NCBI GenBank assembly: GCA_951406725.2
Contig: OX597817.1
Coordinates: 71,238,001 to 71,302,000, forward strand
Length of the DNA stretch: 64,000 bases
Direction: 5' to 3'
DNA from: Octopus vulgaris
Lineage: Eukaryota
Shown: in pieces, positions 2,572-62,512 of the stretch
Position numbering within the stretch: the first letter of the stretch is position 1
Layout of the letters: every line of letters starts with the position of its first letter
The notes under the pieces: model-generated
Database searches by the model: none
The model's input: only the letters and a program-made list of their open reading frames with translations
What the model was told of the DNA's origin: nothing
Made by a program: the position numbers and the translations under genes

Positions 2572-2615
2572 GGCGGTGCATCAGCATGGCCGCAGCTCTG
2601 AGCTGAAACAAGCAA
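2571..2615 (+). mobile_element. Extremely 5'-truncated 3' tail of the CR1-group LINE/SINE family, inside (TA)n
   Basis: ggcggtgcatcagcatggccgCAGCTctgAGCTGaaacaag matches the LINE 3' end at 18521-18565 (minus strand). Confidence 0.7.
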
Positions 2616-11437: not shown

Positions 11438-13088
11438 TAGTGGGGGGAAATAAATATTCGTGCATGTCAAAATTCTTTATTTATTTAATTTCTAATGAAC
11501 ATAAATGGGATATACCAATACTATATTTGCATACACATGCATAAACTAAGAACATGCAAAAGAAACTAATAATTTATAGTAACTAATGAATTTATATACA
11601 ATTATAAATATTTAGGGGTGAAAAAAGTATTCGTAGGGAATAAATTTATTCGTACAGAATAAAAGTATTCGTACAGAATAAATTTATGAGATTCTATGTC
11701 ACAAAATACTGTTAAAATAATTTTTTTTACTAGAACTTTCTCGTTTGCTCCAATAATCTTATCAGTTGTCATTTTTAAGTGTCAAAACGCTAGCTTCTTC
11801 ATTCAGCACTGAGACAACATAAAGTAGTATCGTAATAATGGCGAAAAGTAAAGAACTCATAAATTCAGTGAAAAACTGAATTATTGAACAGTGGAAAGCA
11901 GGTAAAAGTTACAGGAAAATATCAGAGACCCCTTGTATTCTATTTTCTACCATATCTTCATTTATTCAAAGATATAAAAAAATCGGGAACTGTTGAAAAC
12001 AGAATAAGATCCGGTGCACCACGCAAGATTTCCCCTAGATCTTTAAGAAAAATGAAGCGAAGAATCGAAAAATATACAATGATCATCAGAAAGGAGTTGC
12101 AAGAAGATTTGTTAGCTTCAGGGACGAGTGTTACACTACAAACAATCAGCAATGAACTTCATAGGAATGAACTGAAGTCACGCTCTACTAGAAAAACTCC
12201 GCTGCTGACTAAAAGGCATAGAGATGCCCGTTTAAAATTTGTTTATGAACATAAAGATAAATCTGATACATTCTGGGAAAATGTTCTATGGACAGACGAG
12301 TCGAAAATTGAATTGTTTGGACGAAATTCGCGTAGCCATGTTTGGAGGAAAGATGGTACCGCCTATTCGCAGAAAAACACAATTCCTACCGTAAAGTTTG
12401 CAGGTGGCAACATCATGGTGTGGGGGTGTTTCTCTGCAAATGATACTGGCAATTTACATGTGATAGATGGTAAAATGAATGCAGAGATGTACCAAAATAT
12501 TTTGAACAATAATTTATGGGACTCTGTAGAAAAGCTCCAGCTTTGTGAAGGGTGGGTTTTACAACAGGATAACGACCCTAAGCACACGGCGAAGTCTACC
12601 AAAAAATGGATTGTCGATCACAATATAAAATTATTAGAATGGCCAAGCCAGTCACCTGATTTGAATCCCATTGAAAATTTGTGGCGTTATTTGAAAATTA
12701 AAATTCATTCAAGAGCCCCAACGTGCATTGCAGATTTGAAGAAAATTTGTCAAGAAGAATGGGAAAGAATTCCTAAAGAAACATGCAAATCATTGATTAA
12801 GAACTACAAGAAGAGATTGGTTGAAGTGGAACTGAATAATGGTTATGCTACGGAGTATTAAATCAGAATTATCAATTATTTATGTTCTGTACGAATACTT
12901 TTTTCACCCCTAAATATTTACAATTGAATATAAATTCCTTAGTTACTATAATTTATTAGTTTCTTTTGCATATTCTTAGTTTATGCATGTGTATGCAAAT
13001 ATAGCATTGGTATATCCCATTTATGTTCATTAGAAATTAAATAAATAAAGAATTTTGACATGTACGAAAAGATTACCCCCCCCCCTTG
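11438..13088 (+). mobile_element. Full-length Tc1-family DNA transposon, IR/DR type, ~1.65 kb
   Basis: ~200-bp TIRs (11438-11636 vs 12890-13088); TA flanks; internal TATTCGTRCA direct repeats; encloses a transposase. Confidence 0.93.
11838..12861 (+). pseudogene. Tc1 DD34E transposase, disabled at the N-terminus
   Basis: ATG 11838 MAKSKEL...; TGA at codon 14; frameshift in an A-run near 11975-11982; then open: GAPRK, WTDESK, QQDNDPKH-x-SPDLNPIE (34 residues between D and E). Confidence 0.9.
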
Positions 13089-14250: not shown

Positions 14251-14654
14251 CTTTTTACTCTTTTACTTGTTTCAGTCATTTGACTGTGGCCATGCTGAAG
14301 CACCGCCTTTAGTCGATCGAGAAAATCGACCTCAAGATTTATTCTTTGTAAGCCTAGTACTTATTCTATCGGTCTCTTTTGCCGAACTGCTAAGTTACGG
14401 GGACATAAACACACCAGCATCGGTTGTCAAGCGATGTTGGGGGGACAAACACAGACACACAAACATATACACACACATACATACATATATATACATATAA
14501 ACGACGGGCTTCTTTCAGTTTCCGTCTACCATATCCACTCACAAGGCTTTGGTCGGACCGAGGCTATAGTGAAAGACACTTGCCCAAGATGCCACGCAGT
14601 GGGACTGAACCCGGAACCATGTAGTTTGTAAGCAAGCTAATTACCACACAGCCA
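14251..14654 (-). mobile_element. Full-length tRNA-derived SINE (family 1) with LINE-like tail
   Basis: Minus strand: A box TGGCTGTGTGGT, B box GGTTCAGTCCC, CORE-like cttgggcaagtgtctt, internal (TG)n, tail ggcggtgcttcagcatggccacagtcaaatgactgaaac. Confidence 0.85.
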
Positions 14655-14970
14655 CATAATATCGTAAACCAATGGTAAAAGAATATTATAACTAAAACCG
14701 TAAGTCCGAAAATAAACCAAAAATAATTCTACCACTTCCACAAAATTAACGACTTCCTTCCTCTCGGAGTACGTGTGTTTGAAAAGGTTTAACTAAAGCG
14801 TTCACACACTAGATAAAAAAGCTTCTTCCCCTAAAAAAGGTTAGTAACATCCTCATAAAAGATTTTATATTTAAAAAAAATAATTTTTAAAAAAATCACA
14901 TTTACACTTCAAAAACTGCATTAAGTAATCCTCATATTAAGTAATCCTCACTTTCAAATATATGTGTGAG

Positions 14971-16965: not shown

Positions 16966-18501
<1,536 letters not shown>

Positions 18502-18590
18502 TGATTGATTGATTGATTGATTCTAGTTTCAGCTTATGAGCTGTGGCCATGCTGGGGCACCGCCATTTGGTGTTGCTACTTGGTTTCACT

Positions 18591-21500
18591 TCATGGAGGC
18601 TTTCTAGCAACTGCTATTTGGTGCATGAGAGAGTTCGATGCAGCTGCCCTCATCTGCCCCTCCTGCCGTGAAGTTGGTTCATCTGGGACACCTGACAGGA
18701 AGAGATCCAGCTTCATTTTAAAGACATCTGTATCCACCCCATGCAGGTCTCTCAGGTTCTTCGGGAGGATATTGAAGAGCTGTGGGCCTCGGAAGCCCAG
18801 GCTATCACAGAATCTTGTCCTACATCTTGATGGCAGGTTTGGAGTCCTAGGCACCACGCAGTGGCGCCCAGTTCTGGCATTTGCGTAACTCTCGATGCCA
18901 AAGTTCAGGACACTTCCCTCCAGGATCTTCCAGATGTATATTATGGCATATCTTTCCCGCCTACGCTCCAGGGAATATAATTTTAATCTCTTGAGTCTTT
19001 CCCAGTAGCTTACATTCTGCATAGAGGCTATCTTCTTGTGTAGCTTCGTTGGATCGCCTCAAGTTCTGTGATCAACTTGACACTGGATGGTGACCATAGC
19101 TGAGAGCAATAGTCAAAGTGGCTTAGGACAAGTGTCTTCCAGAGGACCATCATGGTTTCTTGTTCTCTTGTTCTAAAGGTTCTAAGAATCCATCCAGCCA
19201 GCCGTCTACATTTCATTGTCAGTTTAGCAACATGTACATGAAAGGTCGCGTCATCACTCATGTGAATACCCAGGTCACGCACTGATTGTGCCTCTGGGAT
19301 TGCAATCCCTCCGGGTCCAGTGTATTCATTGGGTATTGCATTCAGTTTTGCATGCTGATAGTATAAAGCTTGAAACTTTCCAGCATTGAACTGCATGCTA
19401 TTCTTTTCAGCCCACTTGTATATTTCGTCCAGCTCACATTGCAGGTGTTTAGTGTCCTCAGGGTTCTGTATTGCCTGTGAAACTTTTGTATCATCTGCAT
19501 AACTTGTGATCGTGGCTCTCTGCGTGGCTGAGGGCATGTCTGAGAGGGCCATTATGAACAGTAGTGGTCCCAGAACAGTGCCCTGCGGAACACCGCTCAC
19601 TATTTGTGTGTTAATGGAGGTGGCCCCATTGGCTACTACCACCTGACTTCTATCCTTCAGAAAGTCATGAAGCCATTCTCCCAGTTTTCCAACTATGTTG
19701 AGATCACGCAGTTTGTGACATATCATTCCATGATCGACTTTATCAAAGGCCTTTGCAAAGTCGAGATATATCACTTCCACATTTGAGTGGTTGAGCAGCC
19801 GTTTCAGCACCCAGTCATAGTGTTGTAGGAGCTGAGTTAAACAGCTTCTCCCTGGTCGGAAACCATGTTGGGTGTCGGGCAGCAAGTCATTCTCTTCAAG
19901 GAAGGTGATCAGCTTCCTTCTGACTATTCGTTCCATGACCTTGCTGATGTGTGAGGTCAGAGAGATAGGTCTATAGTTCTTGGCTTCCGCTCTGCTACCT
20001 CCTTTATGAATGGGGCATATTTTACCTTCCTTCAGTTTTCCTGGAAGTTTGCCAGCTGCAAGGAAGCTCTGAAAGAGGAACTGCAGTGGTCTTGCTAGGA
20101 CTCTCTTACATGCTTTTAGGAGGATTGCCGGGAATCCATCGGGGCCAGTAGCTGAGTCTGTTTTCATTTCATCTATAGCCTTGGTTACATCGTCTTCCTT
20201 TATATCGATGTAATCTATCGTCGCCGCCTCTGATTTTATATCTGCAGTGGTAAAAAAGTCAGTTGGATTGGTGATTTGGAGATGCCCAAGGGGTGGAGTG
20301 AAAACACTCTTGAATTGCTCATTCAGTATTTCACTTACCCTCATTGGTTTTCCTGTAAGTGTGCCATCCTTTTCGAGGAGTGGCCCTATTCTACAGTGCA
20401 CTGTAGCTGTTTCTTTGGCATACCTGTAGAAAGCTCTGGGGTTAGATTTTATGTTTTCTATAGCCCAGGCTTCTTTGTCTGCTCTTTCTTTTTCATGGGA
20501 GAGTTGCAGACATTTTTCGATTTCCAACAGTTTTATTTTTAGGCGGGACTTTTCACTGCTTTCAATCTGTTTGTTTAGGCGATTTGAAAATTTCGTACGC
20601 CGTCTCATTAAAATTTTCCTCTCTCTGGGGATTTTGTTCTTGTGTACAGTGGCCTTTCTCTCTGGGACACATTTGTAGCATATGGCTTGCATTACAGACA
20701 TGAATTGTTGAAGTTTCACGTCGATGTCTGGCGAGGAGAGACATTTAGGCCAGTTTTGTTTGAGGATCTCTTTCTCAATTTGTTTCCAGTTTGCCTTATG
20801 GTAGTTCAAGCTGGAAAGATTTTGAGGGTTTCTTGTAGGCTGCATGTCCGTGCTCTCTTTTGGCCCGTACATGGTCAGCTCTATCATGTTGTGATCCGAG
20901 AGTAGTGTCGGTGTCACTTTCACATTATGGATGAGATCCATGTCATTTGTGAAGCAGAGATCCAGTGTGTTACCTGCCCTGGTTGGTTGGAGTATTACCT
21001 GCTCCATGTACAGGGTGTTGATGAGGTTCAGGAGGGACCTCGCCTGTCCTCGTTCACATCTTGTCATTCCTGGGAGAGAAAGGCCCTCGGGCCATCTGAC
21101 ATTGGGCAGATTGAAGTCTCCCATAAGAAGCACACCTATGTGTTGTTCTAATGTGGTTAGAATTTCTTCTATTTTTATAAGGCAGTCTTCAAACTTGCCC
21201 ACATGGCTTGGGGCATCTGGAGGGCGATATGTAGCACACACAACTACATCAAGTTGCCTAATATGTACAATTAGTGTGTCACACACCGAGTTTGAGTATG
21301 ACAAGAGGACCTGGGGTGTGAGGTCCTCACGGATGTACATAGCAACACCTCCATGACTCCTTTCTTTCCTGTCGGTCCGTAGTACAGCATACTGTGGTAT
21401 GTGTAACTCCGCATCTGCTATGTCCGGTTTCAGGTGCGTTTCTGTAAGTGCTATGCATAAGGCTTGATTGCATGCAACAAAGTCTCTCAGGAACGGGATC

Positions 21501-21694
21501 TTTGTCCTGTTACTGAGTGTTTGCAGTCCTCTGATGTTCAGTAGGAGTATCGAGGTGAGGTGTACGTTGTTGCCGGCGGTGTCCATCCTGTGTCTGTTTG
21601 CTGTGGTGGTCTGGTATATAGTGGGTAGTCCCACCTGCGGGCTTGGGTTTGATGAAGCCAGGTCAGCTGCTGTACAATCTTTTGTGCCATGCAC
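18591..21694 (-). CDS. LINE A ORF2: apurinic endonuclease + reverse transcriptase, one frameshift near 19030
   Basis: APE motifs LNIRGL, LTETHL, GDFN, SDH; RT motifs [38 protein letters not shown]; C-terminus (SLERRRERY) continues in ORF 18591-19022 after a 1-nt loss relative to LINE B. Confidence 0.92.
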
Positions 21695-22448
21695 AAAAAA
21701 GATTGTTGCTCAGCAACTGCTCTTTCAACAACATCATGTTGGCGGTTTGTGGCGCGCACAACATCTGCGTACCTCCGCTTTGGGGCAGGTGGTGCGTGGT
21801 CCATCCTTTTCTTTGTGTTGATGGTTTGTCCATCTGCCTCGTGTCTCTGTGGCAGGGTCCCCGATGTGCAAAGCAGCAGCCTGCACCTTCCTTTCCATGC
21901 CAGCAGGAACCTCTCAGGTAGAACATACACACCCGTGTGCGCTGTTTGGTTCCATCCTTTGCGGTTCCACTTCTATTCCTGGTTGTTTCACCCTTTGGTC
22001 CTGCTTGAGCTTTTTCTTTTCCTTTAGCTCTTCCAGTCCTTCTTTTAGTTCTTCTTCCTCCCTCTACCTCTTCACCGGGTTCTCCGTCTCCATGGCCCTT
22101 GCTGCCGGTTGGAGAACTTGCACCTGGGTTCACTTCCCGGGCAGGTTTCTCATTCAAAACCTCCTCCTGGGCGTCCACCAGGTGGGGGTGACTTCTTTCA
22201 TCGTCTCCATTCTTGCCATCTTTGCCCCGCTCGTTCTCAAAGATGGCATCAAGTGCGCCAACGTGCGACCGTACAAGCGCATATGAGCGCACGAATTCCT
22301 GTCTCTTTCGCTCCATCTGAGCCGCTGTCCTCTTGTAGCCTCTGCTCTTCAGCGCAGCCGCAATCACCTCGCTAGGGCTATCTCCGCCGGCGCACTCCCA
22401 TGCTCGTACGAATAAATCCAGCTCGTCAGGTCTCCATGCTCTGGACAT
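21663..22448 (-). CDS. LINE A ORF1: Myb/SANT (trihelix)-like N-terminus, basic linker, CCCH-type zinc finger
   Basis: W-x3-E-x2-LF-x2-W...IAAALKSRGYKRTAAQMERK; CMFYLRGSC-x8-C-x3-H; lies directly upstream of and overlaps ORF2. Confidence 0.75.
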   Translation of the reverse strand: MSRAWRPDELDLFVRAWECAGGDSPSEVIAAALKSRGYKRTAAQMERKRQEFVRSYALVRSHVGALDAIFENERGKDGKNGDDERSHPHLVDAQEEVLNEKPAREVNPGASSPTGSKGHGDGEPGEEVEGGRRTKRRTGRAKGKEKAQAGPKGETTRNRSGTAKDGTKQRTRVCMFYLRGSCWHGKEGAGCCFAHRGPCHRDTRQMDKPSTQRKGWTTHHLPQSGGTQMLCAPQTANMMLLKEQLLSNNLFCAWHKRLYSS

Positions 22449-22499
22449 GCTGGATAATCCGTCTATCCGTTTATCTATCTAATTATGTTCGAGAGAAGA

Positions 22500-24245
22500 C
22501 AGGAAGATATTAAGGCTAATTAGAAGATAGAGTACTTGAAAAAGAAATATTAACAATATTAAAGTTTGCGGGTAAAAACGTTATTTAATCTTAGGCTAAT
22601 TAGGGGATAGAGTATCTGAAAATGTATTAGCAATATTAATATTATATTAGAGTGTGGGTAAAAACGTTGTTTAATCTTAAGGCTAATTAGGAGATAGAGT
22701 ATCTGAAAATATATTAGCAATATTAATATTATATTAGAGTGTGGGTAAAAAAAACGTTATTTAATCTTAAGGCTAATTTGGAGATAGAGTATCTGAAAAT
22801 ATATTAGCAATATTAATATTATATTAGAGTGTGGGTAATATTAAACGTTATTTAATTTAATCTTAAGGCTAATTAGAAGAGAGAGTATCTGAAAAATTAT
22901 TAACAATATTAAGCAATATTAACCGTTATTTAATTTAATCTTAAGGCTAATTAGACGTTATTAATATTAAACGTTATTTAATTTAATCTTAAGGCTAATT
23001 AGAAGATAGAGTATCTGAAAATATATTAGCAATATTAATATTATATTAGAGTGTGGATAAAAACGTTATTTAATCTTAAGGCTAATTAGGAGATAGAGTA
23101 TCTGAAAATATATTAGCAATGTTAATATTATATTAGAGTGTGGGTAATATTAAACGTTATTTAGTTTAATCTTAAGGCTAATTAGAAGATAGAGTATCTG
23201 AAGAATTATTAACAATATTAAAACAATATTAAACGTTATTTAATTTAATCTTAAGGCTAATTAACAATAATTATTAACAATATTAAACAATATTAAACGT
23301 TATTTAATTTAATCCTAAGGCTAATTAACAATAATTATTAACAATATTAAACAATATTAAACGTTATTTAATTTAATCCTAAGGCTAATTAACGTTATTA
23401 ATATTAAACGTTATTTAATTTAATCTTAAGGCTAATTAGAAGATAGAGTATCTGAAAAATTATTAATCAAGAACAGATATTGAAAATGTAAACAAACAAA
23501 ATTATATTAGAGTGTGGGTAATATTAAACGTTATTTAATTTAATCTTAAGGCTAATTAGAAGATAGAGTATCTGAGAAATTATTAACAGTATTAAAACAA
23601 TATTAAACGTTATTTAATTTAATCTTAAGGCTAATTAACAATAATTATTAACAATATTAAACGTTATTTAATTTAATCCTAAGGCTAATTTGACGGTATC
23701 AATATTAAACGTTATTTAATTTAATCTTAAGGCTAATTAGAAGATAGAGTATCTGAAAAATTATTATATCGAGAACAGATATTGAAAATGTAAACAAACA
23801 AAGATTATATTAGAGTGTGGGTAATATTAAACGTTATTTAATTTAATCTTAAGGCTAATTAGAAGATAGAGTATCTGAAAAATTATTAACAATATTAAAC
23901 AATATTAAACGTTATTTAATTTAATCTTAAGGCTAATTAACAATAATTATTAACAATATTAAACAATATTAAACGTTATTTAATTTAATCTTAAGGCTAA
24001 TTAGACGTTATCAATATTAAACGTTATTTAATTTAATCTTAAGGCTAATTAGAAGATAGAGTATCTGAGAAATTATTATATCGAGAACAGATATTGAAAA
24101 TGTAAACAAACAAAGATTAAAAATTATATTAGAGTGTGGGTAATATTAAACGTTATTTAATTTAATCTTAAGGCTAATTAGAAGATAGAGTATCTGAAAA
24201 TTATTATATCGAGAACAGATATTGAAAATGTAAACAAACAAAATG
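22500..24245. repeat. Modular AT-rich tandem array (about 22 units) upstream of LINE A ORF1
   Basis: Core aacgttatttaat(ttaat)cttaaggctaatt recurs at 48-130 bp spacing, with optional modules agaagatagagtatctgaaa, attatattagagtgtgggt and gaacagatattgaaaatgtaaacaaacaaa. Confidence 0.92.
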
Positions 24246-24662: not shown

Positions 24663-28325
<3,663 letters not shown>

Positions 28326-28743
28326 TTCCGCGCAGCAGCCACTCCTACATTCAGTAGAAATATTTTTGTGTGTGTGTGTGTTGGTGTCTGTGGTAGCCAT
28401 CCTGCATCTGTTGGATATATATATATACATATATATACAGCTTTATATATATATGTATATATATATGTATATATTGTGCCATGCACATATATATATATAT
28501 ATAAATCAGCTATGTATATATACGTAAATATAAATATGTGTGTTTCTGTGATAATACCAATTTATAATTTATTAACTAATTAGTGAACATCCAAATATTT
28601 ATACAGAATAAATCAATATACATCAATAAGTAAGATAATACCATAAGAATATATAATACATATAAAATGGATACTGGCAGTATATTGGATAAATGATATC
28701 CCATAGTGGGTTACACTATATATATCTCACTTTATATATATAA

Positions 28744-37515: not shown

Positions 37516-37639
37516 GTCAAAAATTGATCTCGACGGAATTTGACCACGGAACATACAGACGGACAAAATACCGCTAGACATTTTATTCAGCATGCTAACG
37601 ACTCTGCCAGCTCGCTGCCTTATCAATAATAATATAATG

Positions 37640-37847
37640 ATTTGAAATTTTGACACTAGGCCAGCAATTTCGAGGGAGGGGTAAGTTGATTACATCGACC
37701 CCAGTGTTCAACTGGTACTTAATTTATCGACCCCTAAAGGATGAAAGGCAAAGTTAGCCTCGGTGGCATTTGAACTGAGAACGTAACGGACGAAATGCCG
37801 CTGAACATTTTACCTCACGTGCTAACGATTCTGCCTGTCGCCACCTT
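37640..37847 (-). mobile_element. SINE family 2 copy
   Basis: actggtacttaatttatcgacccc..aggatgaaaggcaaagt..cctcgg..atttgaact; a partial copy lies at 37520-37620. Confidence 0.75.
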
Positions 37848-38594
37848 AATAATACTGATAATAATAACGATAATTTATGACAACCTAAAAGGACTGAAAG
37901 AGTTAAATATACTTGAGAGATATACTGCTTTGCAAAGAAATTCTTTCGTAATACAATTTGTATTCAATGTAGTTGGAATTCTGTTTATAAATACAGGAAA
38001 GCTGGATAATCTTTTGAAGAAAAGAAACTCAAATTCCCGGAGGGAAAATAACGAATTAATTAATAAGACAGGATTATTCAAAGAATATATCTTTACATAT
38101 TAGAAGAGAGAGATAAGAGAGAAACACAAGAGAGAGGTAGTGGGAGGAAGGGAGAGAGAGGGAGGAGAAGGGGAGGGAGATAGGGGGAGAGAGAAATATA
38201 CATGCGTAGTAGAGTAAAAAAAGAAAATATCAAATAGCGAGCAAATTGAAGGTTTGTTGAAATGCATATCTATACTTCCATTCATATATGTCAATACTAT
38301 TTATTCTATACGCATGAAGACATAAATACGCAACTGAAATATATATATATATATATATATTTATATAAATTTTATAATTATGAGTATAATTATAATTAGG
38401 GTTCAGCAAAAATTTGCTTCACCACATACCGATGTGGTGAAGCAACCCTAATTATAATTATACTCATACTTATAAAGAATTTTGTTTAAGTTTGCCGATA
38501 ATGGTTCTTTTAACATACCGAACTACTTGGTAAAATTATTAATTAGTTAATCAATTTTACCCTTTATTATTATATGTATATCTTCAAACCATCT

Positions 38595-38883
38595 TTTTCA
38601 GACCATCAGATGTTGTTACACATCGCTGGTCACAATGCGTTCGCATTGTTTTAGCCTTCGAATGACGCCACCCCGCTGGCTAAGCGAGCAGGCCAACAGA
38701 AGAAAGAGTGGGAGAAAGAGTGGTGAAAGAGTACAGCAGGGATCACCACACCCTGCCGGAGCCTCGTGGAGCTTTTAGGTGTTTTCGCTCAATAAACACT
38801 CACAACGCCCAGTCTGGGAATCGAAACTGCGATCCTGCGACCGCGAATCCGCTGCCCTAACCACTAGGCCATTGCGCCGCCAC
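38595..38883 (-). mobile_element. tRNA-derived SINE (family 3a)
   Basis: Minus strand A box TGGCCTAGTGG, B box GTTTCGATTCC; head shared with 52869-53152. Confidence 0.8.
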
Positions 38884-39016
<133 letters not shown>

Positions 39017-39474
39017 TCATACAATTAAGCCTTTACAGGCAAAGCTTCAAGTCCCAGTCAACGTAATATGCACAATACTCTAACTTCTAGAAGTACTGAG
39101 CCCCTTATATAATTAAATGCTTGTTAACACTTTCATAATTTATGACCCTAACACACACACACACATATACGCACGCACACGCACACACACGCACACACAC
39201 ACACACACACATGCCGCATATATGGCTATGTGGATAAGAAGCTTCCATTCCACTCATGTGGTCTTGGGTTTACTCCCACTGTGCAGCAACTATAATAAGT
39301 ACCAGCGTTCGACTGGTTCTTATTATATCGATCCTTGAAAGGCGAAGTCAGCCTCGGCGGAATATCAACTTAGAACATAAACCTGGACGAAATACCGCTT
39401 AGGATTTTGCTCGGCGTGCTAACTATACCGCCAGTTAGCCACCTTACACCATGCGCATGATATTAGTTGTTTGT

Positions 39475-39692
39475 AAGGCGGTGAGCTGGCAGAAGCGTTA
39501 GCACGCCGGGCGAAATGCGTAGCCGTATTTCGTCTGCCGTTACGTTCTGAGTTCAAATTCCGCCGAGGTCGACTTTGCCTTTCCTCCTTTCGGGGTTGAT
39601 AAATTAAGTACCAGTTACGCACTGGGTCGCTATAATCGACTTAATCCGTTTGTCCTCTCTGTGTTTATCCCCTTGTGGGTAGTAAAGAAATA
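39475..39692 (+). mobile_element. Young SINE family 2 copy with 16-bp TSD
   Basis: TSD gatattagttgtttgt at 39459-39474 and 39693-39708; B-box-like GAGTTCAAATTCC. Confidence 0.88.
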
Positions 39693-40221
39693 GATATTAG
39701 TTGTTTGTCGCCTACTAGTAAGATATTTCATATCGCTTGCTCTCTGGCATGCAACGTTAGCGAAAAAACATAGTACTGTTGTTACTTTCGGTAAATTTTA
39801 TGATTCCGCTAATTACGCATGTTAGTGTGTATATGTTTCTATTTGCAAAGCATTTACTTCACTTTTTTTCTATAACATTTTTAAAACATAACCTCAGACG
39901 TTTTATTTTTTTGCTAATAGTTTCTAAAGTATTTTTGAAAAAACTTCTGTGACGTATTTGTTGCTATCATGTGTGCGGCTAGCACTTCTGTCCTTTTCTC
40001 TAAAAATGCCCGCGTTCTGTCGCTAATAAACAACGTTTGCCAAGCGATAAAATATTTTTTAATGTCTAAAGCTTACCTTATTTTTCACCCCAGGATAATG
40101 AGATGCTTGTTCAATACTTACCAAAATTCTTTCAAGAAAATACGATAGGATTCAATTCTTCAAGACCCCGTAAGAAACCTTCGCTCATTACAAACAACAA
40201 TGTCCATAAAAATAAGTTTTT

Positions 40222-40880
40222 TTCTATCATAGGCACAAGGTCTGAAATTTTGGGGGAAAGATTATGCTGATTACAGCTACTGCAGTACTTAACAAGCACT
40301 TATTTTATCGACCTCACAAAGGTTGATTGGAAAAATCCACCTCAGCGAGTTTGAACTCAGAATGTAAAGACGGACGAAATAATACAAAGCATTTTGTCCG
40401 GTGGGCTAATGATTCTGCCAATTTGCCACCTTAACCATCATAATAATACTCCTTTGTACCATAGGCACAAGATTTGAAATTTTGGGGAAGGGGATGAGTC
40501 TATCACATTGACCACAGTGCGTAACCGGTGCTTATTTCATCGACCTCGAAAAGATGAAAGGCAAAATCTCTCGGCGGGATTTGATCTCAAAATGTGGAGA
40601 CGGACGAAAAGCTGCTAAGCATTTTGCCCGTTGTGCAACAATTTAACCATCATAATATTGATAAACCTTTCTACTAAAGGCAAAGAGTCTGAAATTTTGT
40701 GGAAGAGGGAGGTCGATTACATCGACTCCATTGTTCAACTGGTACTTATTTTATCGATCCAGAAAGCATGACAAAGTTGACTTCGGCGGAATTTGGACTC
40801 AGTACGTATAAAACCAGAAGAAATTTCACTAAGCATTTTCTCTGGTACGCCAACCATTCAGCCAGCTCACACTGCCTTAG
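40222..40880 (-). mobile_element. Three head-to-tail degenerate SINE family 2 copies
   Basis: ~225-bp unit (ataggcacaag..tgaaattttggggg..cttattttatcga..tttgaactc..aagcatttt) repeated three times. Confidence 0.75.
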
Positions 40881-47464: not shown

Positions 47465-49995
47465 TATATGCATGCACATACGCGCATATGCATACATTCG
47501 TTCATATATATATATGTATGTATATTGATAGATAAATAGATAGATAGATACATGGATATTATACACTCTTACAGGATTTTATATTAAGAATGTGAATAGT
47601 TCACAAGCAAAACGGAAACATTTTTTGAGTAATGCGTTTTACTAAAGGGCTAAATAAATGTCAAAATGATGTTTAGAAAGACATATTAAACTGTAAAGAT
47701 ATCTAAGGCAATCTAAAATATAGACTTTAAGAACACCTCTTCGTTTTGCATTATAGAAAAAAAATACAATAAAGTTAACCGATTATATATATAGATTGAA
47801 AGAACATGCTACTTATTTCTACATAAAATGGGAGATGCACAGGTGATACAGACCATTTAGAAACAGAACAAAGTGTTGCAGGTAACGATTGATTGGAAAA
47901 GCTTAATACTGAAAACTTTAATAAATTTACAAACTATTAGACCTAAAGATAGCATAGCTTCTAAAACAATGAACGATCATATCACAGCCTGAATGAACGA
48001 ATCAATATTTAGCTATTTACTAAAATTAATCATGATATCTCTTCAATTTTAGCCCACAGATAGATACTACTTCATACAATTTTATATGAAATCTTTATCC
48101 TTCCACGGTCATTTGCAGAATGAACCATTACTTAATTATTTGCCTGGAATAAACACATACTCTCTCGAGACACTCCTGAACTCATTACATTCTATAATTG
48201 TACACCTTTTAATTATTTATATTTTCAAATTTAATTTCCTGTACAGCAATCTTTTATCGTTATTAGCCTTGAGAGGTCCTTTCATATAAGCACAGCGTGA
48301 GTAAAAACACAGAAATAAATTGTAGCAGACGAGAATTTCTGTTATGGGTGCTGGAACAGTTGAATCACGTGATTTCAGTGTACTGGACTTCCTCTGTTGT
48401 AGGCTTCCGGCCACTGCATACCAGCCAAATCTTGCTCCCACGATAAATAGAATTTCAACATCTGTTCAGTCACAGATTCGCAAATAACCAACAGGCTTAT
48501 AAAAAAAATAATTATTGGTGATGGAAGCAATATTAATACCAAATAGCCTGGTCAGGGTCTAAAGCTTTTTTGACGATAATAGCTTTGAGAATGTTAATTT
48601 TTACTTTAAGTCTTTCTACGTTTCTGGCAGAGATCATAGTATCCAAGATTGAAAACGGATATAAGTTAATATAAAATTTATTTCTTCTATGTAGCGTTTA
48701 ACTGGCAGAGAACATAAAATGTTATTGAATAAATAAATAAATAAATAAAATTAAGAAATAACCGTACGTGGTCCCTAATTTATCGCGTTGGATCAGTCAG
48801 AAATATATTATTTTCACGAGATAAATTCTTTAGGTTCTCATTGGCAAAGTTCCAGTGTTTCGTCTGGTTCAATGATTCAACTCAAACTGCAATTTAATAA
48901 AACAGAACGAAACAGCTTGAAACCAACACTGTACCAAACATCAAGTAATACGAACAGTAATGATATAAAAAAGCAATACCTGCCGGACCAGGGTCTATGC
49001 AATAGCGTTTGTATGCGTTTAATGTAATGCTGATATAATACAAGCATGTAATACAAGCATGAGAAACGTTGCTTTCAAAAGTTAATCCCCCAAATACACT
49101 AATCTGCTTCTGATTCTTGGAGTATCCAGTTGATGGCAAAAGTGCCATGGCGAGATAGAATAAAAAGAATATGATTTTTAATCATTCCCGACGGACGAAA
49201 CTAAAAAGAGAATACAGCCAGAAATTCCAAATTTACACCCGAATAAAACGAAACAGGGCCTCCATCTTGGACCGTGGCGAAAACAGTAAATGTGGCTACA
49301 CAAAGAACTACTACACAAGGCAAATTAATGCTAAGTATAAAACGATGTCCTAATTAAAAATAACTATACGTGGTCGCTTGACTGGGTAGAAATAGCAACC
49401 GAACTTCCTCACACAACATCCTTACTCTTTAAAAGACAGACTTACACATTAACTATGTGTTCATGAGTACAATACGTTTTATTGCCTAATAAGGGGACAG
49501 TTACAGATGGAAAGCCTTTGATCATAAATTACCTCGTTTAAGGTTTGCATCATGGATATAAACACAGACAAAACAAAAGCAAAAGCAGCCAGGATGCGTT
49601 ACACAAAATACTTCGCATATATACAAAAGTAGCCAGACTTAACCAAACATACCATATACGACAGCTCCATAAAAGAAAGATACCTTTGGAGACGGAAAAC
49701 GATGATATAACGTAACAATGGAACTCAAGTACAATATTTTTTATCTCTAACATCAGCTTTTGTTCCCACAAGACACTACTTCCCAAGCATATTTTACTCA
49801 CAACACACTTAAGTGTATTTTAATCTTTTTAAATATTGACTTAAAGTTTTGGTACAAGCTCAGCAATTTCGGGTGTAAGTCGATTACATCGACCCCCTAG
49901 TACATTTTAAAATTTTTTTATTAAACTCAAAAGGATAAAATGTAAAGTCGTCAGTGGCGGAAAAAAGAACTTAGAACTTAAAGACTGACGAAATA

Positions 49996-50226
49996 TCTAT
50001 TTCTTTACTACCGACAAGGGGCTAAACACAGAGGACAAACAAGGACAGACAAACGGATTAAGTCGATTATATCGACCCTAATGCGTAACTGGTACTTAAT
50101 TTATCGACCCCGAAAGGATGAAAGACAAAGTCGACCTCGGCGGAATTTGAACTCAGAACGTAGCGGCAGACGAAATACGGCTACGCATTTTGCTTGGCGT
50201 GCTAACGATTCTGCCAGCTCGCCGCT
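49996..50226 (-). mobile_element. Young SINE family 2 copy nested in an older copy
   Basis: Reverse complement of 39475-39692; gaaata on both sides; older copies at 49845-49995 and 50370-50535. Confidence 0.85.
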
Positions 50227-50879
50227 GAAATACCGTTTGATTCTGCCCTTTAAAGCTAACTTCACCAGTTAGCTTTAAAGACAAGGTCCAGTCTCATCAG
50301 TATTGTTCATTTTTTTTTTTGTTTTTTGCTTCAAAATTTCGTTTATCTAATATTCTTTTCTACTCTACGCACATGGCTCGAAATTTTGGGGGAGGGGGTC
50401 CCAATATGTGAGTCGTATTTAATTTATCGACATCGAAAGGATAAAAGACAAAGTCGACCTCTGCGGAATTTGAACTCAGAACGAAATACTGCTAAGCATT
50501 TAGCCCAGCGTGCAAACGTTTCTGCCAGCTCGCCAACTTTCGTTTATCTAACATTATTGAAGTTATTTCCCTTAATTTCGTTTTTTATATTTCAAGCACA
50601 CACACACACACATACACACACACACACAAACACACACACACAGATTTGTTTACAAATTACATAGATAATCTCGATTAACCAGTTTTTCACTTGGCATAAT
50701 ACATAAGTAAAACAATATCTATATTTACTATTATAGTTTGTAGCTATTCCATTTTTGAAACATTAATTTTATTAATTTCGTAACGCACGAAGCTACCGTT
50801 CTGTGGCACAGATGTTCGCGTCGGCGCGCCGTTTGGAAATCGCTGTTTTAAAGAGTGGTTCAGAACGTAAAGTATGTTA

Positions 50880-54154: not shown

Positions 54155-54223
<69 letters not shown>

Positions 54224-54472
54224 TTCACGGTAGGCAACCAGGGTTGCAGGGTATGCGAATAAGAATACAAAAATTAAGGAATGGAGTAGATAAGATCCGG
54301 GTTACATATGTTTCATAACGAGCGGAACCTGGGAAGTGGTAAAGAGGTGTATACTGTAGGCAACTATTCAGGCCAAGCCTGCGGTATACACTTCTCTTAG
54401 ATGTTTACCACTTCCCAGGTTCTGCTCGCTATGTATGTAGCCCGGATCTTACCTAATCCATTCCTTAACTCT
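54060..54472. mobile_element. Dispersed repeat with internal inverted repeat (copy of 2070-2500)
   Basis: ~54272-54343 is inverted at ~54404-54469. Confidence 0.65.
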
Positions 54473-54474
54473 TA

Positions 54475-54690: not shown

Positions 54691-55044
54691 TATTCGGTTT
54701 CCGTTGGTGGTTTGGGTTGGTTAAAGTAAAACGCCTTTCATCTCACCTGCCTGATCAAATCGATAATTTTCTCTAGCAGTAGTGTTGTGGAGAGTTCGTT
54801 TGGTGGTGTTGAATATCCCAGGTAGTAATATTCCAAATCCATTTGGTGAGCGTATTTATATAAGTAGATTGTTACCTAACACTCCATTGTATTTTTTTGC
54901 GCGAAACCGATTAGTAAAACCAGCCGAATGGATACTTAATACTATAAAATTCGGATAATATACCCACTCGACTTACACTTGTAGGAGTACATCTTCTCTC
55001 TGACTTCTGGTCTCTTAGACAACTTATATATATATATATATATA

Positions 55045-55411
55045 TTCTTTTACTTGCTTCAGTCTTTTGACTGTGGCAATGCTGGAGCACCACCTTTAAT
55101 CGAATCACTCGACACCAGGACTTATTCTTATTATCGGCCTCTTTTTACCGAACTGCTAATTTATGGGGAGGTAAACACACCAGCATCGGTTGTCAAGCGA
55201 CGGTGGGGGACAAACGCAAACACACAAATACACACGCACAAACACATTTACACGACAGACTTCTTTCAGTTTCTGTCTACCAAATCCACTCACAAGGCTT
55301 TAGGCAACCCGAGGGTATAGTAGAAGAAACTTGCCCAAGGTGCCACACAGTGGAACTAAATCCAGAACCCTGTGTTTGTAAAGCAAACTTCTTACCACAC
55401 AGTCACTCTTG
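55045..55411 (-). mobile_element. Full-length SINE family 1 copy
   Basis: Collinear with 14251-14654 from tail to head. Confidence 0.82.
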
Positions 55412-55414
55412 TGT

Positions 55415-55475
<61 letters not shown>

Positions 55476-57912: not shown

Positions 57913-58494
<582 letters not shown>

Positions 58495-59296: not shown

Positions 59297-60788
59297 TGGT
59301 TCGGTCGGGACCTCCAAATGGAGAAGAACTGGAACTAGGTAACGAGTAGGGTGGTCACTCTCGCCCAGCAATGGGCCGAGAGGAAACTGTCCCTAAAAGG
59401 TCGGGCGGAGGTGGCGAACACGTACATCGCGTCCATCATCTACTACCGCCTGACCGTCGTACCTTGTCCCGACCCTACCATCACCAAACTAGAACGCATT
59501 CTCTTCCGCTTCTTGTGGAAAGGATGCCTCCCGATGGTCAGGCGATCCATTTGCTGTCAGCACCCGTTAAAAGGAGTGCTGGGCATGCCGTGGTTGATGA
59601 TGCGCAGACACGCGCTGAGACTGCGACGTTTCCGGCTCTATGTAGACGACGGTGAACAGGTGTGGTCGCCGTTTGTGAGGCACGCTTTCCCACAGCTCGT
59701 CTCCATGACCGAACTGCAGTCGTGGATCAAAAAGAGGCCGAGGAAGGGCGAATGGCACCGCGAGTGTCGCGTTGCTCTCAAGCAACTCTGCCGTCCCAGG
59801 TCGACCTTGAGTGACTTCAACACAACCAAAGCATTCTATAGGGGATTAGTGGAGGGGAGGTACGACGACGATCTTGGGGCAAACCTGGGCGTCGACGAGG
59901 AATACCTGACCCACCTGTTTGAAACGACTTTCGGGCCGGGAGCTATGGACAACTTCCAGAGATCCCTGGCCTGGCAGTGCTATCGAGAAGCGCTACCCGT
60001 TCGGGATAAGCTCTATAGGCATGGCTCGAGAAACACGGGGCCGACCTGCCCGAGATGCGGGCAGAGCGACGAAACCGTTCTGCACGCAATCGTGCAGTGT
60101 CCAACAATCTCCGACCAGTGGGCTTATGTCGAACGACTACTGCCACGTGTGGGACGTGTCGGCTTATCAGCCGAGTCTATCGTTAATATCGTCACGCCTC
60201 CTTCCTTCAAAAGGGAAGGAAGAGCTATTTGTATCATACTTGTGTCTATGGCGAAAGAATGTATCTGGTAGACGCGCCTGAAAGGATTAGAGGCAAACAC
60301 TTTCCTCTCTGGTCAATCTCTCATCAACTTCTTCAAGTATCACTTGAAGAGGAAAGTGAGAGTAGAGAGGCAAGTGTTGTCTAGTGGATGTGTTAAAAAA
60401 AGATGGGTGAATGTAGCAAGGATGGCACGTATGAATGAACCGTAAAAATTAATACAGAGAGTTGCTTATTTGTAAAAAAAAAAAAAGAACATAACATGTG
60501 ACTTCGTTGACCGAGGTTACCGTGGTCTTTTCCGTAGGCTTTTCTTTCCACGGGTAAACCTCACCTATCCTCCCCTTTATATTGACATCTCTGTGATAAC
60601 GATCCCTATTGATCGTTTTTTTTCCTTTTCCCTTTTTTTTATCCCCCCACCTTTTTTGTCCTCTTTCTTTCCTTTTTACGATCCCTTTTGATCGAAAACC
60701 AAACCCCTCTTTTTTATCCCCAAAAGAAAAGCTCTACCTTGTAATTTGTCCTGTCTGTGTGCAGCCCTGTGTGGCTAATAAAGAAACA
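59297..60788 (+). mobile_element. 5'-truncated Tx1/L1-clade LINE (post-RT region, zf-RVT, 3' UTR) inside (TATC)n
   Basis: WAERKLSLKGRAEVAN...FRFLWKG...CPRCGQSDETVLHAIVQC; in-frame stops; pyrimidine-rich 3' UTR; AATAAA at 60777. Confidence 0.85.
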
Positions 60789-62032: not shown

Positions 62033-62281
62033 CTCATATACTACGGCTATACGTGCATTTCTACATATATGTAGATACGAATACAAAGACGCACATTAAT
62101 GTCACATAGAAATTATTTTCTCTTGAATATCATATATTAAAACATGTGAGACCAGTTACTCGACAACCAACATTTGTGAAACTCTAAATTTTATATATAT
62201 ATATGAAGGGTTTAGTTCACTGGTGATCTAAACGAATAAGCTGAGTAAGTGATATAATTGGTCATCCGTTAGGTTCCAAGT

Positions 62282-62387
62282 TCACTCACCAAGAAGCCGA
62301 TACCACACACGGACCTAGGTTTCAAGATAATAGGCAACACACCTTGAAACCTAGGTCCGTGTGTGGTATCGGCTTCTTGGTGAGTGA
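62282..62387. repeat. Perfect 45-bp inverted repeat with 16-nt loop
   Basis: 62282-62326 is the reverse complement of 62343-62387. Confidence 0.9.
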
Positions 62388-62512
62388 TCTCCCTTTGCAA
62401 GACAAAGGACGCCGTGATGGCGTCAGGCCTATCTGGTGACGTTGATGTTCGCCTGGGGCTAAATGCAACAGTGACACCCCCACCACCCTGCCCTGTCCCT
62501 AGCCATATTCCC

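Follow-up and report, generated by a model that had tools for sequence, protein, structure and literature searches.

LINEs and SINEs that share a 3′ tail with covarying stems illustrate a principle that is long established. The closest experimentally tested systems are eel UnaL2/UnaSINE and zebrafish ZfL2-1/ZfL2-2, which belong to the L2 clade and carry a U-U mismatch and a bulged C. For the zebrafish L2 elements, passages of PMC4176376 describe recognition that depends on sequence in the loop but on structure in the stem, and in eel UnaL2, a section of PMC1636434 reports that both the stem bulge and the mismatch are needed. Shared LINE/SINE tails are described for many other taxa in parts of PMC3747384. 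Bivalve SINEs share tails with CR1-group LINEs, and their stems exhibit compensatory changes (passages of PMC4824008, PMC4758252, and PMC11481361); CR1-Zenon elements are named there as partners of bivalve SINEs (Martelossi 2024, PMC11481361). For octopus, the relevant portions of the literature give tRNA-Core and tRNA-Deu as the two main SINE families (PMC8967140), list OR1 (Ohshima and Okada 1994) as a CORE-SINE (PMC4824008), and assign 11.6% of the O. vulgaris assembly to SINEs (PMC13282606). No partner LINE for any octopus SINE is named in the literature found, including the passages at hand of the octopus repeat papers PMC13282606, PMC9115989, PMC8967140, and PMC10294476. An octopus LINE/SINE pair may already be annotated in Repbase, Dfam, or SINEBase.

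In the 64-kb window, by which we mean the whole stretch of DNA analyzed, two LINEs (LINE A and LINE B) and a tRNA-derived SINE end in the same tail (Table 1). Our reading, which is probably correct, is that this 45-nt tail of two predicted hairpins is native to an octopod LINE and is shared by a SINE likely copied by the ORF2 protein of the same lineage. As in the eel and zebrafish elements, short terminal repeats come after a stringent 3′ stem-loop that contains an internal mismatch, and we propose likewise that recognition is general for the stem and specific for the loop. The octopus tail differs in that its mismatch is G·G and its hairpins are two in tandem, and in being known here from sequence alone. 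The two-hairpin anatomy, the clade-level covariation of the first hairpin (HP1) around the G·G mismatch, and a possible preference for TA targets are what this DNA adds. Naming the engine would explain part of the octopus-specific SINE expansion, and the covarying HP1 supplies natural variants for RNA-recognition tests outside the fish L2 elements.

Among molluscs, the most similar case is CR1-14_CGi with BivaV-SINE2/BivaCORE-SINE1 (passages of Nishihara 2016, PMC4824008), in which a tRNA SINE likewise shares with a CR1-group LINE a short 3′ tail whose stem-loops show compensatory changes. The hosts belong to a different class, the bivalve tails in the supplement of PMC11481361 contain by eye no GGYGG/YGRCC pattern of the kind found here, and the cited passages on bivalve CR1-group/SINE pairs note no target preference. 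Within octopods, the window SINE resembles the tRNA-Core SINEs, including OR1, in host, tRNA-like head, CORE-like CCTTGGG segment, and length of ∼400 nt, a likeness drawn from published descriptions.

Table 1. Positions of the tail-bearing elements and associated features in the 64-kb window
Feature	Position	Strand	Evidence or remark
Motif copies	2572 (+), 14287 (-), 18544 (-), 25094 (-), 25372 (-), 55074 (-)		pattern scan
Tail-only fragment, HP2 nearer LINE A than SINE, TA tracts both sides	2572..2615	+	
Nearly complete SINE with tRNA-like head, CORE-like segment, and a TA/TG tract inside	14255..14656	-	tail at 14269-14307
(TA)765 tract directly flanking LINE A 3′ end	16969..18498	.	
LINE A 3′ end: AAAC, TAG, then (AATC)n terminal repeat	18499..18529	-	
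LINE A HP2, CAGCU-CAUA-AGCUG	18530..18543	-	fold
LINE A HP1, GGC-G-[G-UGC-CCCA-GCA-U]-G-GCC, G·G mismatch	18545..18564	-	fold; covariation in relatives
LINE A ORF2, APE endonuclease + RT, two frames, break near 19037	18591..21709	-	domain matches
LINE A putative ORF1, 271-codon frame	21663..22478	-	weak sub-threshold domain matches
SINE-type tail-only fragment, inside TA tract below LINE B	25068..25119	-	
LINE B tail: HP1, HP2 GGCC-UUCG-GGCU, AAAC; then short repeats + TA tract	25354..25392	-	
LINE B, 75.5% nt identity to LINE A, 5′ part decayed or truncated	25408..28412	-	
LINE B open ORF2	25408-28167	-	APE endonuclease/RT domain matches
Complete SINE, sharing 77% identity with the one at 14 kb and flanked by TA tracts	55043..55415	-	tail at 55056-55094

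A sequence-only reading of this DNA had proposed that LINE A, LINE B, and the SINE end in a common 3′ motif, and this is borne out by a pattern scan: with up to three mismatches allowed, the 21-nt motif GGYGGTGCYYCAGCATGGCCR has six matches in the window and none in 100 shuffles. The motif had been taken as linear, with a hairpin after it; it is shared as proposed, but the motif itself folds as a hairpin in six of six copies. We describe the tail as two predicted hairpins, HP1 first and HP2 separated from it by one base, which are present in all six window tails (folding z of −2.1 to −3.7). The hairpins written out in that reading have the sequences given, except that the outer C-A pair of LINE B is open. 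The uniform motif and AAAC ending it gives need qualifying: two of the six copies (2572 and 55074) carry one motif mismatch each, and the SINE tail at 55 kb has AAGC in place of AAAC. The cUUCGg tetraloop of LINE B was dropped as a significant feature, being present in one of six copies. An Rfam search returned no match, and a scan of viral contigs with the tail pattern returned none either. The same scan of prokaryotic genomes gave 64 matches in unrelated bacterial records, which we take as chance.

HP1 has the form GGY-G-[stem-loop]-G-RCC and is built in layers: a GGY/RCC outer stem, the G·G mismatch, then one G-Y pair, UGC/GCA, and a loop of four bases. In the 55 kb copy, a G-U pair replaces the mismatch, and the loop reads YYCA in five of the six copies and AUCA in the other, a fragment. 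With the loop included, any two of the six window copies are identical at 16–19 of 20 positions. In HP2, no loop base is common to all copies, and within the window double changes occur at only two of the five pairs, among three sequence types. By itself this is weak evidence of covariation, so the covarying pairing once claimed for HP2 stands only in part; the strong covariation sits in HP1.

That covariation is seen in distant relatives. A scan of metagenome contigs gave 141 relatives, of which the best 80 (37–48% amino acid identity in the ORF2 C-terminus) were used; 68 of these have at least 60 nt downstream and form 63 clusters at 90%. A flank-only pattern (GGYGG, 9–12 free bases, YGRCC), which was set after the relatives' tails had been seen, matches the tails of 12 of the 63, and all 12 contain an inner Watson-Crick stem of at least 3 bp, with eight different 5′ arms among them. 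Two nulls for this count have means of 0.3 and 2.2 and maxima of 4 and 8 in 20,000 trials, and 110 kb upstream of the relatives' tails holds a single match, which is stemless. In the alignment of the 12 tails, 100% of HP1 cells are paired, as compared with 19–54% in slid controls; four of seven pairs are doubly changed, and the covariation score is reached by none of 500 shuffles. The result holds when the window copies are added, and RNAalifold predicts the same stem. A covariance model of the 12, built from tails picked by window-derived flanks, places the six window tails at the top of its 14 matches, with E values of 3e-7 to 1.6e-3 and the seventh at 0.24; two further relatives' tails score below 0.01 with the same model. 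HP2, with at least 4 bp, is found in 7 of the 12 (null mean 1.3, maximum 6), usually with AAC after it, and is missing in 5.

On a quick tree of the relatives, carriage of HP1 requires four changes, and a single clade holds 9 of the 12 carriers, so the cell counts overstate the number of independent covariation events. The strict HP1 pattern is unmatched in 51 of the 63 relatives (a looser descriptor matches 21 of 68), which shows that the lineage employs other tails besides this type. Recurring tail types of their own are seen in other ORF2 clades (L086, L087, L094, L104, L107, L108, and L125; L114, L134, L138, and L140; L071, L093, and L102); these types follow the ORF2 tree and are possibly variant stem-loops. 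The distant ORF2 proteins P0010, P0011, P0013, P0022, and P0039 have GG(P/H)P(W)-like C-terminal peptides, as would be expected if the reading frame ran through an HP1-like tail.

The sequence-only reading had named HP2 as the element that the RT recognizes. The freely differing HP2 loops, as against the near-constant HP1 with its covariation across the clade, point the other way, and by analogy to eel UnaL2 and the zebrafish L2 elements, HP1 would be the likelier recognition element. An alternative is that HP2 confers specificity, in which case LINE A and LINE B cannot mobilize the SINE and a third subfamily ending in CAGTC-AAAT-GACTG is, or was, its sole partner. Indeed, over HP2 and the end of the tail the three SINE tails are alike at 21–23 of 23 positions, whereas they agree with LINE A at 14 and with LINE B at 11–12; the position of HP2 is conserved in the seven relatives that have it, and passages of PMC4176376 report that loop swaps abolish mobilization in zebrafish. 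Against this, HP1 with its loop is kept across LINE A, LINE B, and the SINE even though the two LINEs are only ∼75% alike overall, five relatives do without HP2, and no LINE with the SINE-type HP2 occurs in the window or among the contig matches listed. We therefore regard HP2 specificity as unlikely and prefer HP1 as the shared signal. The HP2 comparison does bear on the donor. The claim that LINE A or LINE B is itself the engine of the SINE is not upheld, because the SINE HP2 is close to neither; the partner is a LINE lineage and not necessarily these subfamilies, which suggests a sister or ancestral subfamily as the source of the SINE tail. For comparison, HP2 and the end of the 2.6 kb fragment match LINE A at 18 of 23 positions and the SINE at 13–14. 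The 77% identity of the two long SINE copies contrasts with the near-identical relatives of LINE A, so that SINE copies and LINE A differ in age.

Three SINE copies had been placed at 14251, 25069, and 55045. The first and last are indeed long copies, of ∼400 and ∼370 nt, but the one at 25 kb is tail-only and matches the 14 kb copy over 47 nt at 96%. By eye, the SINE head contains an A-box-like TGGCTGTGTGG and a B-box-like GGTTCAGTCCC; ARAGORN calls no gene and Rfam gives no match. CCTTGGG, given in a passage of PMC5786205 as a conserved CORE-SINE sequence, is present in the 55 kb copy and with one mismatch in the 14 kb copy, as a short-motif match. Between these two copies, the tail is conserved (HP1 17/20, HP2 and end 21/23) well above the SINE as a whole. 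That this family is the commonest SINE, as had been stated, is not borne out in the window, where it has 10 pieces and a second, about equally common family with a different tail has 12. The second family, which may correspond to tRNA-Deu, is mostly clustered at 37520–40880 and 49837–50539 and shares ∼20 nt at ∼85% with the first upstream of the tail; no partner LINE for it is found in the 64 kb.

Insertion sites give a second line of comparison. A perfect (TA)6 or longer tract lies within 40 nt, thresholds that were chosen afterwards, of five of the six tail 3′ ends (two of these five copies being in one tract) and of 3.3% of random positions. Among the tail copies, four of the five 5′ ends checked are also TA-adjacent. 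The second SINE family shows such adjacency in none of its 12 pieces, and most older pieces of the tail-bearing family are without it too. The contrast between five of six and none of 12 suggests a target preference shared by tail-bearing LINE and SINE copies, and the endonuclease of the LINE lineage likely favors (TA)n tracts. Since there is a TA/TG tract within the SINE itself, the tracts may have been seeded by the elements.

These data also bear on the idea that the SINE captured its tail once, by template switching or recombination, and was amplified mainly by a relaxed LINE (RTE, Dong-R4, or Tx1, each of them abundant in octopus), the tail being a relic. According to a section of PMC13282606, O. 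vulgaris has abundant LINEs of other groups with recent activity, and in bivalves the activity profiles of SINEs and LINEs can correlate poorly (passages of PMC11481361). However, between SINE copies the tail has diverged far less than the element as a whole, and TA adjacency is common to the tail-bearing SINE and LINE copies and lacking in the second family; capture as a relic thus appears very improbable. Copying by the tail's own LINE lineage is the reading we retain. The pairing of LINE and SINE through a shared LINE-derived tail, proposed earlier as a candidate, is well supported by the homology of the SINE 3′ end to the native LINE 3′ terminus and by the compensatory changes in HP1, and from these we infer mobilization.

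The tail is the LINE's own 3′ end and not a separate SINE insertion. Contigs from four runs (X3, X4, X9, and X15) were aligned to 18499–19300, and in three of the four a contig bridges the tail and the ORF2 stop: 18530–18657 with no differences in X4, 18532–18683 with 11 in X15, and 18530–18776 with 46 in X9. None of the eight X3 matches listed bridges the two, though X3 depth covers the tail. The motif begins 26 nt after the ORF2 stop in LINE A and 15 nt after it in LINE B, and the tail of distant relatives likewise comes shortly after the stop. Had other LINE copies lacked the tail, the partnership would have been in doubt; the X4, X9, and X15 contigs and the 12 relatives all have it. Tail-only fragments do exist in the window (2572 and 25068), yet that the tails of LINE A and LINE B are separate SINE-derived insertions is almost certainly wrong, given the like position after the stop in both, the contigs that join ORF2 and tail, and the same architecture in 12 distant relatives outside the window.

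That LINE A and LINE B are LINEs is confirmed by APE-endonuclease and RT domain matches in both. Near-identical contigs in X4 and X15 carry one extra base near 19037 relative to LINE A, so the frame break there is probably specific to the window copy or its assembly. Among named ORF2 relatives, the closest (58%) comes from Argonauta hians, and a homologue search with the putative ORF1 gave one partial match, to an Octopus sinensis gene model (coverage 34%); on these similarities, the host is most likely an octopod. No full-length ORF1 homologue was found in that search or, as a usable match, in the ESM Atlas. The putative ORF1 shows Myb/SANT-like (E 5e-4) and CCCH zinc-finger (E 0.01) resemblances, both below Pfam cut-offs. 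An ORF2 with APE endonuclease and RT is found, as is necessary for the CR1 group, yet is common to other LINE groups. We presume CR1-group membership from this domain content and a likeness of the ORF2 C-terminus, the group being taken broadly as CR1/L2/Crack/Daphne/Zenon/Rex1. CR1-Zenon was considered and rejected: a passage of PMC13343379 characterizes it by no ORF1 and a poly-A tail, while the 3′ terminus is (AATC)n in LINE A and a set of mixed short repeats in LINE B, and the 271-codon frame upstream in LINE A, a putative ORF1, may also speak against it. A term search of the available text of an ORF1 survey (PMC4120745) returned no CCCH, Myb, or SANT.

LINE A words are found at 75–98% in 20 runs from 10 organism codes and 12 studies, and some contigs are 99–100% identical to LINE A over 128–570 nt, which suggests a young, high-copy family. 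No RNA dataset is listed among the matches to LINE A words, which has no bearing on expression. Directly upstream of its ORF1 lies an AT-rich nested tandem array (22574–24206; units of ∼64, 90, 312, and 374 nt), which may be part of the LINE A 5′ UTR or a separate minisatellite.

In the mechanism we propose, the ORF2 protein would bind HP1, taking the stem with its G·G mismatch as the general cue and the YYCA loop as the mark of the family. The role of HP2 would be that of a stem, whatever its sequence, that positions AAAC and the terminal repeats for target-primed reverse transcription, the endonuclease would probably choose (TA)n tracts, and the actual driver of the SINE would likely be an older or sister subfamily of LINE A and LINE B. 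A more ambitious version, possible though doubtful, is that the expansion of octopus tRNA-CORE SINEs was driven by an octopod LINE of the CR1 group, whose endonuclease targets (TA)n, via a bipartite tail in which an ancient G·G-mismatch HP1 is RT-binding, its apical stem-loop gives family identity, and HP2 is a positioning stem of free sequence; it takes HP1 as kept across marine-eukaryote LINEs that are ∼40% identical in ORF2. If true, it would provide a structural rule for predicting LINE/SINE partners and an example of a CR1-group element that targets a microsatellite.

Finally, the window contains several other elements. A Tc1/mariner-type element at 11442–13081 (+) has a DDE transposase frame at 11872–12861 and terminal inverted repeats of ∼205 nt that are 92% identical. 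At 59339–60786 (+) lies the 3′ part of another LINE, which has a zf-RVT domain but no HP1/HP2 tail. Long inverted repeats or MITE-like elements are located at 854–1304, 2228–2500, 39337–39583, 54219–54473, 57913–58229, and 62279–62390.
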